64,000 bases of DNA, taken from assembly GCF_963921235.1 (NCBI RefSeq), contig NC_086097.1, forward strand, positions 122,080,001 to 122,144,000. Direction: 5' to 3'. The translations under genes were made by a program, and so were the position numbers. Shown here piece after piece: positions 1 to 37,915 of the stretch; position 1 is the stretch's first letter, and each line of letters opens with the position of its first letter. The stretch comes from Mobula hypostoma. Taxonomy: Eukaryota. The notes beneath the pieces are model-generated. The model ran no database searches and was not told the DNA's origin. It saw only the letters and a list, made by a program, of their open reading frames with translations.

Positions 1-286
1 GTCGCAGGGTGAAGAAGGGTCCTGGGCTCCAACTGTTTGTACACGAAGAGATTGATCTTTGATAAGTGTGGTGCCTTTGATTTTCCTTTTTTAATTATAT
101 AGTTTCATTAATATCTATAAACTGTAAATCATTTAATCGTATCTAGTGTATTGTCTGTTATTTGGACGGGGTGGGGTACATCACGCAGCATCCACACAAA
201 CTAATTACCCAGTTTGGCGGGGCCAAGGGCTGTTCCCCTAGACGACAGTGAGCCGAGCGACCCTGAGGTCGGCCAGGGGGGCTACA
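1..286 (+). repeat. 5' LTR (3' part)
   Basis: Aligns to 3383-3683; ends ...GGGGCTACA. Confidence 0.9.
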
Positions 287-289
287 TTG

Positions 290-307
290 TGGGGGCTCAT
301 CCGGGAT
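290..307 (+). promoter_or_regulatory. Primer binding site, tRNA-Pro type
   Basis: TGGGGGCTCATCCGGGAT, one mismatch from canonical PBS-Pro TGGGGGCTCGTCCGGGAT, 3 nt after the LTR. Confidence 0.9.
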
Positions 308-519
308 TGGGTCTACTGGTATGCTGTGTGGGTGCCCTGGTTAAATTTGTAATGTGTGTCTCTGTGGGTTATTTGCTGGTTATTGCTGTATGCGTGGTGG
401 GTGCAGTTTTTGTTCAAGTTCAGGCTGGCATTGACGAGTTGGAGCTGGCACTTGGGGCTGCCTATGCTGTTGGGAGAGAGAGGAAAGAGTGGTCTGATTT
501 GGAGGTAGTGTGTGCAAAT

Positions 520-1775
520 AAATGTTCTAGCTCTGGCAGGCTCCGCCTGGTGCTTGGGATAGTGTCCACCCCAAGAGGGGCGGAAGCATGCGAGACGTGG
601 GTGGCGCGGATCTCTCAGTTGTTAGATGAGTGGCAGTGCTAGGTTGAGGGAGAGTGACAGGGATTGGTTGAAAGTTTAAGTAGTTGGGCTGGTGACGGTG
701 TTAGAGCTGTCAGGTTCACTTACACCGTACTGACAGCTGTCAGTTATTTGAAAGAGGGGGAAAGTTTTCAGTGTGCCTTCTCTGGCTAGGAGGGCGGCTA
801 AATTGCTTGCAGTGCCAGGGGGATCATTTCAGGGGATCAGCCCCTCCTTCAGTTGTTCAGATGATCAGAGAGGTGTTGAGAAACTTAGTGGAGGCCCAGT
901 GGGGGAACGGCTTGGGGTCTCTGGGGAAGCACGTTCCCAGCAATGTACCAATGAACTTCCTCAAGGAAAAGACCCTATTCCTGAAGGCTTAGAGGGACCA
1001 CGCCCCAGGGTGTCGTTATGGATAGAGGGAAGCGATGTTAAAGCCATCCTCGACCCCGGGGCGCAGGTCAAGTTGTTGTACAGTTCGTTTTACAACCGGT
1101 GTCTGAAGCATTTACCCCTGACTACCGCAAGGGCACCGGAGATTTTGGGTACCAGTGCCAGTAGTTATCCAGAAGATGATGATTGGTAAATGACCCTGGA
1201 GTTTATGGGGGCATTGTCTGGGCACCCAGCGTGTCGAGTTGCTTCTGAGGTCGTGTGTAGCAGCCTTGAGCCGGTACCGAATTTAAGCGAGACCCAGCGG
1301 TGGAACGGCTTGGGGAAAATAGCTGAGGGTGAGACCCTCTTAGTAGATGCTCCGAACTACCACTCGGGAGGGGAGTTGACCGCTGAAGAAACCTCAGTGA
1401 GAGAGAGGTCGCGGCAACTGGACCCTGGCGCCATGGAAAATGGAGGCAGTGTGTGTGTGGATTGTGTGACGTGGTTTAATGTGCTGGATCTGAGGAGTGG
1501 ATGTTGCTAGATCCCAAGGAGGGCGGCTGTTGAGCCGAAAATGGCTGTTATTAGTTCCCTAAGATTATTCTGATCCAAAAAGATGCCCAAGGGCATATCC
1601 GGAGCCCCTGCATCCTTCCCGCGCGGCATGAGGAAGACCATGGGGGAAGTGAAGGTGTGTGGAGTTTTGGCATATATGGATGACTGCCTAGAGCTTGGAT
1701 TCGCCTGGGGTGACTATGAGGCGAGGCGAGTGGCTGAGCCTGGGTGACAGAAGCAAAGTGTCACATGTGGAGGAG
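520..1775 (+). pseudogene. Decayed PNMA-like gag, aspartic protease and RT remnants
   Basis: ETWVARISQLLDEWQC (PNMA-type gag); AILDPGAQV (protease DTG-like); [22 protein letters not shown] and YMDD (RT), with stops and deletions. Confidence 0.85.
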
Positions 1776-1789
1776 TTTCTGGCCGGAGG

Positions 1790-2494
1790 ATTTTGGTGCA
1801 ATGTGAGAAAAATGACCCGACATACCAGTTGAACTTCCTGGTGTTGGAGCAGACGGTGGTGGACCTGGGGATGGAAACCCAGGTCGTCAATCTGAATGAG
1901 ACACAGGGAAGAGAGGGGATTTGCACCGCACTGCGGTCATGTACTGATGAATTAATCCAGCGAGAAGAAACAATGACCCACCTTCGAAGGGATCAGCAGA
2001 AACTCAAGACGTCGATTCAGAAAAGATTGGAAGACTTACAAGTCGGGGAAGATCAAGGAAGTGTTCTGTCTAAGGCCAACAGAAAACCGACAGACCAGGG
2101 AGGGGAGTGTGACTACACTCCCGAGGAGGTGAAGCAATGGAGGACAGATCTCGGAACAGGGAGGCGGACGCTTGAAAGGAACCTGAAGATGACTATCGTG
2201 AGTTTAAATGAAGTAGAAAAACTGAAAGTTGACCTGGAAGACGCCCTCAGGAAGAAACAACCGGAGGCTGAACATTCTTTAACTGCTGCTTTTCAGATCA
2301 GGGTGGAAGAAGCTGGTGGGGTAACTGCGTCCCAGATGGAGATGGCCAAGAACCCTGAGTCAGAACTGCTGAGACTGTGACGAGAGTTGAAGGAGTCCCC
2401 GAAGAAGCTGATGTCTCGACTGCAGGAGGCTGAAGGGGTAGCCCCGGCTAAATGTTTCAGTGTGGAGAAACTTAACCAGCGGCTACCGATCGAG
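1790..2494 (+). pseudogene. Captured, decayed sarcomeric myosin heavy chain rod fragments (MYH16-like)
   Basis: EKND...QKRLEDLQVGEDQGSVLSK...LKMTIVSLNEVEKLKVDLED...RVEEAGGVTASQMEM...ELLRL*RELKE...[24 protein letters not shown] follow myosin rod motifs in the correct order. Confidence 0.82.
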
Positions 2495-2995
2495 GGAATG
2501 AGGAAGAATACGGATTCGAAGGATGATGTGCTGGACACGTGTTACATGCTGCCTTTCACTAACTTCCCCGTGATTGAGGAAGTGACCTTTGGCTCTTCTC
2601 CCACTGAGTCAGGTGTAGTGGGGAGGGCTAGCTGTGGGCAGTCTGAGTTGCGGCAGGATCAGGAAGGAGGAGAGGCGGGGCCCCGGACATGGGACAGGGG
2701 GCTCCGATCTGTAATGGTGGCCTGAGTGAGAGAGGAGTTGGCAAGCAGGCCCGAGGTATCCCTAGTAGTGTCTGAGCCTTTTGGGTTTAGGTGAGGGGGT
2801 ACGGAGGTCTTGGAGGGTTTACAAGCTCCCAGATAGGTTGGCCTATGTAGCGCCCGTGGGACGGGTGTAAGGTCCACTGTTTGGGGAGCACCGTCACTGT
2901 GAGTATCTGTGTATGTGTGTGTTGTGTGTCTGCAGGACTGGTTGGTGAGTTATTTAGAAGTTATGAGGGCATGACTTTATTTGGTGGGGGGAGAG

Positions 2996-3683
2996 TGTAA
3001 GGGGGTTTCATCTTTACGTTACTGTGTAGGCTAATTAAAATGGCTTCTTTGTTATGTTATATTTGGGAATGCTTCTTTGTTATGTTAAACGCTGAGAAAG
3101 TTTTGCACTAGCAGCTTGTTTTCGGTTAGGCGGTGATTTGGAGATGTTATGAACCAATTGGGATAGTTGTTATGATTTCGGTGTATCTGGAAGATCTGTA
3201 TGCGTGGGGTTTTGGGGGCAGAATGCGGGAGAGAGAGACAGTGGATGCAGGTGCTGTGATGTCCGCTAATGGGGTTGGACCCCAAGGAGGGCGTTTGGTG
3301 AGGAGATGGAGATGGACTCGTGTGGAGCGTCTGGTTGACCAACGTTGTTGGTCCCAGGTGGCAGGTTGAGGTGGTTCGAGGGGTCGCAGGGTGAAGAAGT
3401 GTCCTGATCTCCAACTGTTCATGCACGAAGAGATTGAACTTTGATAAGTGTGGCGCCATTGATTTTCCTTTTATATTTTATTCTCTATTAATTATATAGT
3501 TCCAGTAATATCTATAAACGGTAAATCATTTAATTGTATCTGGTGTATTGTCTGTTATTTGGGCGGGGTGGGGTACTTCACACAGCGTCCACACGAACTA
3601 ATTACCCAGTTTGGCGGGGCCGAGGGCTAGTTCCCTAAACGACAGCAAGCCAAGCGACCCTGAGGTCGGCCAAAGGGGCTACA
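2996..3683 (+). repeat. 3' LTR (688 bp) preceded by PPT
   Basis: TG...CA ends; PPT GGTGGGGGGAGAG at 2983-2995. Confidence 0.9.
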
Positions 3684-4367
3684 CTTCTTAGCCATGCTTT
3701 TCTAAGAGAAAAGACCACAGTGGAGTGGATTTGACATCACTTAGTAATTCCTAAGGGTTAATCATTATGGGTGGGGTGATATTTATAGCATAGTTTTAAA
3801 ACAAAGAACAGTACGCAATCCTGACAATTAAACCAAACTGTCATGCATTCTCAAACTATGCTAAAGATATGCAGTGTCAATTAAGTGTTACAGTTCTAAG
3901 AGAACAATGGTGGCTTAAGCAGTTGGTTCTATTGACCAACATTGAAGATGCAGAACCTCTTACTCTGAGAACTGATTTTTGATTACAATGTGAATATTTT
4001 AAATCGGCTTTTCTGATGCAGAATGTAGATCAAACTGCAGGGATTGTGCTTCAGAACATTGCTGTATATTGAATTCCCAATTAATTTTTCATGGATTGAA
4101 AATTGTGTGAAGTTTTTCTAAGATATACTGCTTAGGTCTCCAAGCAAGATGAGGCCACAACAGAGGTGTGGAATTGAGAAAATGTTAATACTGTAATAAT
4201 GAAGACTGCCCTTGTACAATCAATTATGAGAACTGTGAAAATAGAAAGGAGCACAAGATGCAATTTAGCTTGTCAAAGAATAAATGTTGTCCTGTGAAGA
4301 TTTACCAATGATAATTTAATCTTAATTATAGATTAAATTAGGACATGCCTGAGAGAAGATTGTAGTT

Positions 4368-8500: not shown

Positions 8501-8886
8501 GGGGCAGGTATATAAGGAGATATGTATGATAGAGTTCATTCAAAATGCAATCCTCTTATGCAGCAGCAGGTCAGAATTTCCATTTCTTTCCTCTTATTCT
8601 TCCTCTTGCTGTATATCAGTTATTTCTTCATAAATATCGCCAAGAGATAAAGTAATAAAAGCAACTGAATAATGTCCAAAATGTGGCTATAAAAATTGAA
8701 ACAGATAGCAAGAAAGGACAGGCTGAAGTAACAGCCAATGTCTAATATTTGTAGTGAAAATTTATTTATTAAAATATGAGGTTCGTCAATTGAATTATCC
8801 AGTAAGGAAGGTAATTTCTCTCTGTAACACACATAAAAGTTGCTGGTGAACGCAGCAGGCCAGGCAGCATCTCTAGGAAGAGGTGC

Positions 8887-8922
8887 AGTCGACGTTTCAG
8901 GCCGAGACCCTTCGTCAGGACT
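8887..8922 (-). ncRNA. Minimal type I hammerhead ribozyme motif
   Basis: Exact reverse complement of 8954-8989. Confidence 0.8.
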
Positions 8923-8953
8923 AACTGAAGGAAGAGTGAGTAAGGGATCAGTT

Positions 8954-8989
8954 AGTCCTGACGAAGGGTCTCGGCCTGAAACGTCGACT
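8954..8989 (+). ncRNA. Minimal type I hammerhead ribozyme motif
   Basis: AGTC-CTGACGA-AGG(GTCTCGG)CCT-GAAAC-GTC^-GACT: intact core, stems I and II, palindromic ACGT stem III. Confidence 0.8.
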
Positions 8990-9734
8990 GCACCTCTTCC
9001 TAGAGATGCTGCCTGGCCTACTGCGTTCACCAGCAACTTTTATGTGTGTTGCTTGAATTTCCAGCATCTGCAGAATTCCTGTTGTTTGCGTTTAATTTCT
9101 CTCTGTTCCTGCTCTCTGGACAAGCTAACAAATTAACCTAATTTCCTTGCTCTTTGCTCATGGCCTTCAATCTTTTCCTTTCAAACACTTATACAGCCTC
9201 ACTTTGAAGGTTATTATTGAATTCCTCTACCATCAGTTCAGTCTGGCTGTTGGGCAAAAATAAAATTCTCCTAATCTCACCCCTGGTTCTTTTGCAAATT
9301 ATTGCAAATCTATATCCTCTTGTTGTTAGTTCTTATGACCATGGGAAACAACTTTTTCCTGGTTCCTCAATAAAAATTCTTCAAATTTTTTAAGAACTCG
9401 ACCAAATCCTTTTTTTAAAAACATTTCCTTTGCTCTAAGAAATCTGGATGATGGACGATGGAGTTGAAGAATAAACTAGTAATGTTTGAATATGTAGGCA
9501 CATCATTTTACAGCAAAAGTGATCCTATTCATATTGGTCTCTTGCAGATTAGGTACTCTTTTGCTATTTGATAGTTAGAATTCAGTGTGAAATTCTGTAA
9601 TAAAGGATGAGGAGGCCAGTCACTTGGTACACCTAAAGCAGAGGTTGATAGGTTCTTGATTAGTAAGGGCATCAAAGGTTATGGGGAGAAGGAGGGAGAG
9701 TGAGTTTGAGAGGAATAATAAATCACTTCTGCAA

Positions 9735-20838: not shown

Positions 20839-20933
20839 TTAGAGTGGATTGTAACCCATCGGGACAATTTTTGTGAAAGTTCAAGAGAATCCTGGTGGAC
20901 AAATCAAATCTCAGACACTTAGGAAACTACATG

Positions 20934-22567
<1,634 letters not shown>

Positions 22568-22744
22568 TATATTGATGTGTTTTTTTCGAGCGCTGCATCA
22601 TTATAGAAGGACCAGGTGAGGATACTATTGACATGGATGTCATTAGGTACTCAGGATTTATTTATTTTCTGCTTCATTAACTCGGTATTCTAATAATATT
22701 TTACTTAAGATATCTTCTTATGGGTGCTATGGTATAGACACATA

Positions 22745-25520: not shown

Positions 25521-25830
25521 ACTCTAGTACCTGTTTATCTTTACCCATCTTTGCCAACCTGCACTATTGCTCTGTCCTTTCTTTTTAACTTTCTAAACTT
25601 TCTAAACAACTATCATAGGAAACAAATTGCATGTTTCCTTTCGTTGGAAAGCTATAGTCACTATTCCATGTTGCATCAAAGTCACTTCTTGCATATAGTA
25701 TGCTTCAGGTGGTCCCTAAGACTCAGCTTACCACTTATCATTGGGATCTCATTGAATAAGCACATTGGTATTGTCCTGAGATTCAACAAACTAGGTTCAA
25801 CAAAGCAAAGCCAGGGTAAAACAAAAGGAC

Positions 25831-27963
25831 TGTCATGGTCTGGTCCGTGAAGTCCACATTCTGGTTCACGGTCCGGTCCATTAACCCTTGCTCCATGTTT
25901 TCCTGTCTACCCTGTTTCTGTTCTTGTTGAGCTCTAATTGAGGCAGCTGATGCTCGTTGGGGCTGGCTGTGTAAATACCTCCAGAGATCAGGGCATGGCT
26001 GCTGGATTGTTCTTGTCCACACTCCTCGTATCCTTTTCCCTGCCTTCTGTTTCCTTGCCTGAAGCCTTGCCTTGTCTTGCCGGTAACTCTCGCATCGTCT
26101 CGCCTGAAGTCTTGTCTTGGAGCCACCCTGTACCTAGCTCCCTTCCTGCCCCTTGCCTCCATTGGGTATGCCAGGCCAGATTGCTGTTACCCTGCGGTGG
26201 GTCCTGTCCCTTGCCCTCCATCGGGTAAGTCAGGCCAGATTGCCGTTACCCTGCGGTAGGTTCTGTCCCCTCCTGTCCCTTGCCTCCGTCGGGTGGAGAT
26301 CCGCACCCTGCCCAGGTGACCCGCGCCCTGCCCAGGAGTACCACGCCCTGCCCAGGAGGAGCTTCAAGTCCCCAAGCGTCTAGCCAAGCCTCGCCTCAAG
26401 TCTCTAGCCTCGCCTTGCCCCAAGCTAAGCTTCAAGACCCCAAGCCTCAAGCCTCCGGTCTCAAACCTCGCCTCAAGTCTCAAGTCCAGCCTTGCCTGAA
26501 GCCTGAAGATTCCAGCTTCATCCTGCCTGCCAGCCAAGTCATGTCCTTGTCTAGTTCTGGGGTCTGAGCCAGAGGCAAGACCCAGGTTCTGGGTCCTTGT
26601 CCAGTCTCTGGCTCAGAGTCCAAGCCCTGGCTTTGAACTCTCTTTTCCAGTCCTGTTCTGGGTTCCTGGTTGTCGTGTCCATGTCCTAGCCCTCACCCTG
26701 TATCGTAGTCCTGTCCCTAGTACTTCAGTGTCTGTGACTTGCACTTGGGTTCATTTCCAGCCACCACCTTATGACAGAACAATCCAGCCAACCATGGACC
26801 CAGCGACACAGACACTGTCATTTTCCTCTTGCCACCCAGGGTTCCCTTCTGTTAAATATTCTCCCACCCACCCGGGTCGTCCATAGTCTGGATAGCCTGT
26901 TTGGTCGCCAGGAGGCTCCCGTGGGGTGGGGGGGGGGAGGAGTACTGTCATGGTCTGGTCCGTGAAGCCCATATTCCGGTTCACGGTCTGGTCCATCGAC
27001 CCTTGCTCCAGGTTTTCCTGTCTACTCTGTTTCTGTTCCTCTTGAGCACTAATTGAGGCAGCTGATTCTCGTTGGGGCTGGCCACATAAATACCTTCAGA
27101 GACCAGGGCATGGCTGCTGGATTGCTCTTGTCCTTACTCCTCGTATCCTTTCCCCTGCCCTTTGTTTCTCGCCTGAAGCCTTGCCTTGTCTTTCTGGTAA
27201 CTCTCGCCTCGCCTTGAAGTTCTTGCCTCGCCTTGCATTACCTGAAGCCTTGCCTTGTCTTGCCGGTAACTCTCGCCTTGCCTTAAGTTCTTGTCTTGCC
27301 TTGCATTGCCTGAAGCCTTACCTTGTCTTGCCAGTAACTCTCGCCTCGTCTCACCCGAAGTCTTGTCTTGGAACCACCCTGTACCTAGCTCCCTTCCTGT
27401 CCCTTGCCTCCATCGGGTAAGCCAGGCCAGATTGCAGTTACCCTGCGGTGGGTCCTGTCCCTTCCTGTCCCTTGCCCTCCATCGGGTAAGTCAGACCAGA
27501 TTGCTGTTACCCTGCAGTGGGTTCTGTCCCTTCCTGTCCCTTGCCTCCATTAGGTGGAGATCCATGCCCTGCCCAGGAGTACCATGCCCTGCCCAGGAGG
27601 AGCTTCAAGCCCCCAAGCCAAGCTTCAAGACCCCAAGCCTCAAGCCTCACCTCAAGTCTCAAGTCTCAACTCTCCAGCCTTGCCTCAAGCCTGAAGACTC
27701 TGGCCTCGTCCTGCCTGCCAGCCAAGTCACATCCTTGCCTCGTTCTGGGTTCCGAGCCAGAGGCAAGACCCAGGTTGTGAGTCCTTGACCAGTCTCTGGC
27801 TCGGAGTCCAAGCCTGGCTTCTAGGTCTCTTGTCCAGTCCTGTTCCAGGTTACCGGTTTTCGTGTCCATGTCCTAGCCCTCACCCTGTATCCTAGTCCTG
27901 TCCCTAGTATTTCAGTGTCTGTGTCTTGCACTTGGGTCCGTTCCCAGCCACCACCTGATGACA
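25831..27963 (+). mobile_element. Miniature non-autonomous LTR element (Tf1/sushi-type Gypsy derivative)
   Basis: LTRs 25831-26776 and 26946-27963 (TGTCAT...ATGACA), 169-bp interior with MDPA gag start and G-rich PPT, 5-bp TSD AGGAC. Confidence 0.92.
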
Positions 27964-36954: not shown

Positions 36955-37915
36955 TCAGAATCAGGTTTATTATCACTGGCAAATGTCGTGAAATTTGTTA
37001 ACTTAGCAGCAGCAATTCAATGCAATATATAATAATATAGAAAGAAAATAATAGGAAATCAATTACAGGAAGTATATATATGTATATTAAATAGATTTAA
37101 GATAGTGCAAAAATAGAAATAATATATACTTTTCAAAAAGTGAGGTAGTGTTCATGGATTCAATGTCATTTTAGGGTTCGGATGTCAGAGGGGAAGAAGC
37201 TGTTCTTGAATCGCTGAGTGTGTGTCTTTGGGCTCCTGTACCTCTTACCTGATGCTAACAATGAGAAGAGGGCATGCCCTGGGTGGTGGGGGTCCTTAAT
37301 AATGGACACTGCTTTTCTGAGGCATTGCCCCTTGAAGATGTCTTAGATACTACAGAGGTTAGTACCCAGGATGGAGCTGACTAATTTTACAATTTTTTGT
37401 AGCTTTTTTTGGTCCTGTGCAGTAGCCCCACCTATACCAGACAGTGATGCAGCCTGTCAGAATGCTCTCCGTGGTACATCTATAGAAGTTTTCGAGTGTT
37501 TTAGTTGACAAACAAAATCTCTTCAAACTCCTAATGAAATACAGCCGCTGTCTTTCCTTCTTTATAGCTGCATCGATATGTTGGGACCAGGTTAGATCCT
37601 CAGAGATCTTGACACCCAGGAACTTGAAATTGGACACCCAGGAACTTGAAATTGCTCACCCTCTCCACTTCTGATCCCTCTATGAGGATTAGTTTGTGTT
37701 TTCTTGTTTTACTTTTCCTAAAGGCCATAGTCAGCTCTTTCATCTTACTGACATTAAGTGTAAGGTCCTGACGAAGGGTCTCAGCCTGAAACGTCGACCG
37801 TACCTCTTCCTAGAAATGCTGCCTGGCCTGCTGCGTTCACCAGCAACTTTGATGTGTGTTGCTTGAGTGTAAGGTTGTTGCTTCAACACCACGTAACTAG
37901 CTGGTATATCTCACT
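36955..37915 (-). mobile_element. Rex/Babar LINE 3' fragment
   Basis: FKFLGVKISEDLTWSQH...ESILTGCITVWY; 22-bp tandem duplication at about 37611-37654. Confidence 0.85.
37767..37865 (+). mobile_element. Short Penelope terminus with intact hammerhead core, inserted in Rex
   Basis: CCTGACGAAGGGTCTCAGCCTGAAACGTC; flanked by AGTGTAAGGT direct repeats. Confidence 0.8.

Follow-up and report, generated by a model that had tools for sequence, protein, structure and literature searches.

LTR-mediated retrocopies of animals arise by a double template switch (Tan et al. 2016, PMC5131818), in which part of a spliced mRNA replaces part of an internal ORF, with microsimilarity at both switch points, retention of both LTRs and secondary retroposition. 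In the accessible text of that paper, the examples are young, multiple insertion sites are given for two Drosophila cases, and the species named include no cartilaginous fish. The same text describes maize Bs1, in which host exons from three donors lie within an LTR element that has common switch points and was re-amplified, reaching 1–5 copies (PMC5131818). According to the accessible text of PMC7411935, mouse IAP 1-delta-1 is a non-autonomous endogenous retrovirus without host cargo, in which a deletion has left a fusion frame that is translated and is important for transposition, the fusion protein being said to act in cis.

The element described here extends from upstream into the 64-kb stretch of Mobula hypostoma DNA that was analyzed (the window), of which it covers positions 1–3687. 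It is one copy, now decayed, of a Gypsy family that is non-autonomous and carries a spliced piece of myosin rod. It has the marks of an LTR-mediated retrocopy, in that the donor introns are absent, parent sequence is replaced, both ends show microsimilarity, and both LTRs and secondary retroposition are found. Unlike the cases of Tan et al., however, the ray family has at least 705 sites and at least six deletion subfamilies, occurs in several ray genera, and retains an open frame at 18% divergence; compared with Bs1, it has a single donor, hundreds of copies and a vertebrate host. For the open frame, which in the ray element is read from sequence, the IAP 1-delta-1 fusion is the nearest precedent (PMC7411935, as far as its accessible text goes), but no amino-acid constraint is seen in the ray element, where a dN/dS of ~1 argues against a sequence-specific role. 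The capture mechanism is thus already known; what is new is the scale, the true donor, the order of events and the frame signal. We put a probability of roughly 0.65 on the combined reading that an MYH16 paralog, apparently headless, likely contributed a piece by template switching to the non-autonomous Gypsy family of which the window element is a decayed copy, and that the replicating lineages of this family were likely selected for an open frame. In the open-access literature searched, with matches judged largely by title, we found no description of the element family or of its donor.

Table 1. Parts of the element, in window positions
Feature	Position	Strand	Basis and remarks
5′ LTR, 3′ portion	1–286	+	sequence comparison with 3′ LTR
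PBS-like site	290–307	+	sequence
gag remnant with deletions	289–989	+	alignment; family frame without family-wide stop until 990, broken in window copy
Protease remnant (AILDPG)	830–1203	+	Pfam RVP E 0.14 (weak); long copies align
RT remnant with deletions (YMDD near 1675)	1335–1745	+	Pfam RVT_1 E 0.0074, below cut-off; long-copy alignment
RNase H remnant, including "EKND"	1772–1857	+	alignment of window 1772–1863 with RNase H in L031 and L033 (long copies)
Myosin insert (five blocks)	~1858–2495	+	alignment of spliced donor CDS
Myosin block 1	1858–1929	+	donor CDS 51–122 (MYH16 numbering ~904–928), 78% identity; then 120-nt deletion
Myosin block 2	1930–2257	+	donor CDS 243–570, 83% identity; exon junctions crossed at 2020/2021, 2107/2108
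Myosin block 3	2258–2296	+	flanked by 27-nt and 126-nt deletions
Myosin block 4 (RVEEAGGVTASQ)	2303–2389	+	87% identity; junction 2335/2336; private stop 2378
Myosin block 5 (KKLMSRLQ...AKCFS)	2390–2495	+	follows 624-nt deletion common to most of family; junction 2400/2401
Native pol tail, in frame with myosin	2496–2725	+	family-wide stop 2723–2725 at its end
Family-level 672-codon open frame (PR-RT-RNase H remnants, myosin, tail)	705–2722	+	31 copies; private stops break it in window copy
Polypurine tract	2983–2995	+	sequence
3′ LTR (TG...CA)	2996–3683	+	repeat comparison
4-bp TSD CTTC	3684–3687	+	second CTTC precedes 5′ LTR

The PBS, the polypurine tract and both LTRs are kept (Table 1), as the first-pass annotation had read them. 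We take the PBS to be of the tRNA-Pro type; the window contains no tRNA genes. The 5′ LTR starts upstream of the window (G000:C1:122077520), and a 2,077-nt insertion divides it into two pieces, which diverge from the 3′ LTR by 7.9% and 11.6%. The TSD was verified in the window copy specifically. The insertion (L035:3725-5801, just upstream of the window) starts with AGAAACAT repeats and is presumably LINE-like. LTRs, PBS, polypurine tract, gag-pol remnants and pol tail are shared with a Ty3/Gypsy (Metaviridae) parent family, represented by locus L144, which has RT, RNase H, H2C2 and rve, whereas the window copy has no integrase and lacks most of RT and RNase H, and hence is not autonomous. At 1272–1440, comparison with the parents reveals paired frameshifting deletions (25 + 35 nt) that seem compensatory, so that part of the open frame is apparently read outside its native frame. 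Elsewhere, the window contains a GC-rich region of nested direct repeats (25826–27963; spacing 1.1–1.26 kb, identity 88–89%), an inverted repeat of ~440 nt (20931–22570; identity 92–94%, spacer 761 nt), and a MITE-like hairpin with near-perfect 103-nt arms (8826–9089; 99%), of which copies lie at 37765 and 39670.

In a phmmer search of the PDB, the translation of 1748–2377 matched residues 974–1092 of Myosin-7 (E 1.3e-6), 11 of the 12 PDB sequences listed for this peptide were myosin II, and a longer sibling copy matched myosin with an E of 8e-29. The proposed rod homology is thereby confirmed. Pfam found no myosin family in the window peptide and placed the match of long copy L033 to Myosin_tail_1 below cut-off. 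The best full-length database matches of the window peptide are fish myosin-16-like proteins. The blocks are collinear with the myosin rod and separated by deletions, as had been proposed, except that the "EKND" stretch (1790–1857) counted among them aligns to the RNase H of L031 and L033; the myosin sequence starts at ~1858 and extends to 2495. Spliced donor CDS aligns to the window with 82% identity over 638 nt, and to the long copies with 92–93%. Four donor exon junctions are bridged within the window insert, each flanked by 11 nt or more in both directions; in L033 the number of junctions is eight. At 2107/2108 the donor is aligned for 178 and 150 nt on the two sides, which bears out the claim that LSKANRK...WRTDL runs collinearly across an intron position. 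Four further intron-less matches (L031–L034) are 77–80% identical to the window; in translation, L031–L033 have a longer stretch of myosin, which follows retained gag, protease, RT and RNase H.

The path to the donor led from a whole-library search to a Narcine gene model (P0136), and from there to an exon on contig C68. As judged from sequence, the donor is an MYH16 paralog on C68 (G000:C68:14480496-14737312, or 14.48–14.74 Mb; loci L080–L113), distinct from the canonical MYH16 on C36. It has an intact 21-exon rod ORF free of internal stops, with GT-AG introns of up to ~44 kb, one additional rod exon upstream, and a fast myosin cluster 0.6 Mb away. Its exons are 80–97% identical to the long copies, most of them at least 89%. 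The donor matches MYH16, the masticatory myosin (accessible text of PMC11050549), in the sizes of its rod exons (228, 105, 87, 146, 91, 57, 87, 246, 118, 128, 197, 133 and 217), but it is only 58–61% identical to fish MYH16s. In an IQ-TREE phylogeny of 29 rows, in which the element rows cover 25–35% of the columns, a single clade (support 100/98) unites the elements, the donor and Narcine P0136; it lies outside gnathostome MYH16 (100/100), yet on the MYH16 side of the tree (99/100). Canonical MYH16, the donor favored by the first-pass annotation, is intact and was ruled out because it is only 63–67% identical to the inserts, compared with 82–93% for the C68 paralog, and the tree agrees; the LKMTI-x-x-LNE motif that had been taken as diagnostic of MYH16 is also carried by the paralog. 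The remaining host MYH loci match the inserts in short pieces only. Horizontal transfer from a teleost, suggested by the top fish matches, was dropped once the C68 donor was found.

The donor also differs from MYH16 in apparently lacking a motor. Two genome searches (the Pfam search being a floor) and inspection of the 60 kb preceding the first rod exon revealed no motor exon for it, whereas conserved head exons were recovered at the other loci for class II myosins. A candidate for a novel first exon, in frame and with a GT donor, lies near C68:14,521,800. It is 43% identical (E 9e-11) to the N-terminal part of P0139, a headless model from killifish for which an atlas search returned only generic paramyosin and coiled-coil leads (0.89–0.90). 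Reads from 4 of 12 runs, none of them recorded as RNA, gave repeat-type contigs without an exon joint over the donor's two exons, a result that carries no weight for or against expression.

The order of events can be read from relatives of the element. Among the 30 RNase H loci fetched, 5 carry myosin, 6 have neither integrase nor myosin, and 19 are of the parent type, with the integrase or its junction visible in 11 of the latter. Pfam finds RVT_1, RT_RNaseH, Integrase_H2C2 and rve in Gypsy order in L144, and a protease motif lies upstream in the long copies. L144 itself (G000:C5:205695001-205705000) has lost most of gag-protease-RT, its RT-RNase H-integrase order being intact, and adjoins a 92-bp tandem array. 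The integrase deletion (1,489–1,500 nt, at a GAGAGG microhomology) has the same breakpoint in myosin-bearing and myosin-free copies, and the integrase was therefore lost before the capture. In the RNase H tree (FastTree), the myosin copies form a clade (100) nested among integrase-less copies, although the key nesting node is weak (61). The earlier proposal that myosin took the place of RNase H and integrase thus fails on both counts: the integrase had already gone, and RNase H is still present in the long myosin copies, so that it shrank only after the capture. What the myosin replaced, rather than interrupted, is ~55–75 nt of parent sequence (55 nt between the microhomologies, 74 nt from the RNase H end to the tail). 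Of the 11 microhomology positions at the 5′ junction, 10 agree (9 in L123), as do 10 of 12 at the 3′ junction. Random points reach these levels at rates of 1.4e-4 and 8e-4, respectively, and both joins are in frame with pol. Together with the missing introns and the replaced sequence, these junctions leave us confident that a spliced host mRNA was captured by template switching, as had been suggested. Splicing from the element to a donor acceptor, an idea raised by the insert starting at an exon's first base, was rejected because the parent has no donor site that would give the observed join, and because the microhomology covers the join. DNA-level duplication was also rejected: LTR distances between copies are 7.7% for 3′-3′, 5′-5′ and 5′-3′ comparisons alike, without 5′/3′ asymmetry. 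No matching pol remnant lies in the donor region, where the pieces found are LTR-like or of the insertion type.

When the host genome (G000, 3.48 Gb) was searched at the DNA level, 850 candidates were returned; 40 were scored, and each of these was full length at no less than 94%. A myosin 25-mer occurs at 705 sites (control 1), the junction typical of the window subfamily at 166 (control 0), the parent integrase junction at 367, and the myosin-free integrase-less junction at 6, by a pattern that misses L125; each count used a different pattern and is a lower bound. The supposition of an amplified non-autonomous element is thereby confirmed, with amplification in trans as its inferential part, and so is that of trimming by internal deletions, since at least six deletion subfamilies were found among 144 distinct loci. 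Most copies have a shortened myosin and only a few a near-full-length one, with different subfamilies retaining different parts of the myosin. Among 40 zero-mismatch matches on C1, taken regardless of frame, 12 have the window signature, 9 have the same signature without the 120-nt deletion, and 5 are of the 429/624 type. Copies of the window subfamily have a mean divergence of 5.4%. Database proteins of the same family come from Mobula, Hypanus and Hemitrygon, and the Hypanus protein P0138 has joins identical to those of the 126 and 624 deletions, which therefore likely predate the split of stingrays and devil rays, if inheritance was vertical. The Mobula birostris protein P0128, annotated as "glutathione S-transferase theta-2 isoform X1", is wholly element-derived, and represents either a mis-annotation or an element-host chimeric transcript.

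The open frame of the family is not a sign of myosin function. The longest open stretch across the RNase H remnant and the myosin in the window copy is 210 codons (1748–2377), rather than the 195 first reported, but trunk dN/dS relative to the donor is 1.12 (39 copies, 206 codons), 1.11, 0.68, 1.11, 0.89 and 1.09 in six subfamilies, and 0.7–3.0 (mostly 1.0–1.5) in the gag and pol remnants, so that the myosin protein is unconstrained. Even so, family-wide stops are absent over all 672 codons of frame 705–2722 in 31 copies, compared with dozens in the other two frames. In the myosin part there are 0 stop columns against 4.0–4.8 expected (P 0.008–0.02), whereas private stops are near neutral (18 observed, 22.8 expected). 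An alternative-frame control is modest, with 0 stop gains against 2, 2, 0, 7 and 4. The myosin-free precursor has an open run of 563 codons, and subfamilies C, B, D and E have runs of 569, 545, 456 and 470 codons, respectively. Protein queries, which favor open frames, were used to retrieve B, C and D, and the stop deficits of these three are individually non-significant (P 0.15–0.22). Subfamily A2, which has most of its trunk in common with A, has one family-wide stop column that divides the frame into 372 and 342 codons. Deletions tell a similar story: the 12 recurrent ones of at least 6 nt (9, 21, 24, 27, 60, 72, 105/126, 120, 429, 624, 837 and 876) are all in frame, compared with 13 of 26 private ones, which were counted by hand and include some alignment artefacts (Fisher p 0.003). 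Here, the 127-nt (5 copies) and 625-nt (3 copies) classes are treated as an in-frame event plus a 1-nt slip; counted separately, 12 of 14 are in frame. Two 1-nt indels are recurrent as well, in 4 and 3 copies. Because dN/dS is ~1 and yet stops and frameshifts are scarce on the trunks, we consider it probable that replicating lineages were selected for an open frame, not for the myosin protein.

The strongest competitor, which we nonetheless regard as unlikely, holds that the myosin is neutral cargo, the open frame resulting incidentally from in-frame deletion biased by microhomology, together with a purine-rich sequence and a stop-poor mutation spectrum, and amplification tracking shortening and LTR strength. 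The dN/dS values agree with it, as does the scarcity of near-full-length copies next to the prevalent shortened ones. A microhomology null alone places 49–73% of deletions in frame, which weakens the deletion signal to p 0.001–0.02, and the myosin trunk spectrum of the window subfamily is odd, with A>C (21) about as common as A>G (22) and only one each of G>T and A>T. However, this observed spectrum still predicts 4.0 stops in the myosin part where none is seen, a half-divergence assumption adds ~7 expected stops for gag and pol, and private events in the same sequence do disrupt the frame.

A protein-level variant appears rather less probable still, namely that a gag or pol-myosin fusion protein aids its own RNA in cis, for example through a coiled coil easing entry into helper particles. 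The gag and pol frames are both open, the IAP 1-delta-1 Gag-Pol fusion provides a precedent (PMC7411935, accessible text), and myosin-bearing copies outnumber the myosin-free precursor ~100-fold, although this ratio compares counts from different patterns. Against such a role, purifying selection is absent in gag, protease, RT and myosin, the subfamilies keep differing myosin parts, and helix-breaking changes are fixed in the rod part of the family. As for the insert being a later processed pseudogene, or derived from canonical MYH16 or another species, the fish myosin-16-like proteins among the first database matches were its main attraction; we give it almost no credence, as it is refuted by the donor exons, the splice alignment and the tree. 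The junctions are identical across copies, parent sequence was replaced, and a 92%-identical intron-containing donor is present in the same genome. The findings that had been named as contrary to mRNA capture by the element (introns in the segment, a single copy, and a poly-A or TSD at the myosin insert itself) were looked for, and none was seen.

Selection for openness remains the preferred reading, and a frame that is open without amino-acid constraint and predates the capture favors an explanation at the RNA level. In the mechanism that we propose, two reverse-transcriptase template switches likely moved a piece of donor mRNA, which would have been co-packaged in the germline, into an already integrase-less Gypsy element, and enzymes would be supplied in trans, most likely by the integrase-bearing parent family. 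Ribosomes entering the pol frame might then shield the genomic RNA from nonsense-mediated decay (NMD), or favor its packaging. Any sense, in-frame, stop-free sequence would be tolerable under this mechanism, and the myosin piece would have happened to be one. Low-level readthrough can inhibit NMD in reporters (PMC5360307, accessible text); in the open-access literature searched, we found nothing linking NMD with non-autonomous retrotransposons. A bolder version, which we offer tentatively and with less than even confidence, is that of a Gypsy parasite of a parasite selected purely for translatability, in which the stop-free coiled coil would serve as a ribosome-cleared in-frame spacer protecting the RNA. 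The myosin lineage would thereby have outgrown both its precursor and its integrase-bearing helper, and the donor would be an undescribed, paramyosin-like, headless MYH16 paralog, germline-expressed and present from rays to teleosts.

Host-gene captures known from LTR elements are accidents with few copies, whereas the ray family has hundreds. The family also explains gene models of rays that bear the names "myosin-16-like" or "myosin heavy chain-like" but are in fact element copies. The dated series from parent to integrase-less element, capture and nested deletions allows a test of protein-independent open-frame selection in non-autonomous LTR elements, a question usually addressed only with reporters, and the apparently motor-less MYH16 paralog bears on the evolution of sarcomeric myosins.
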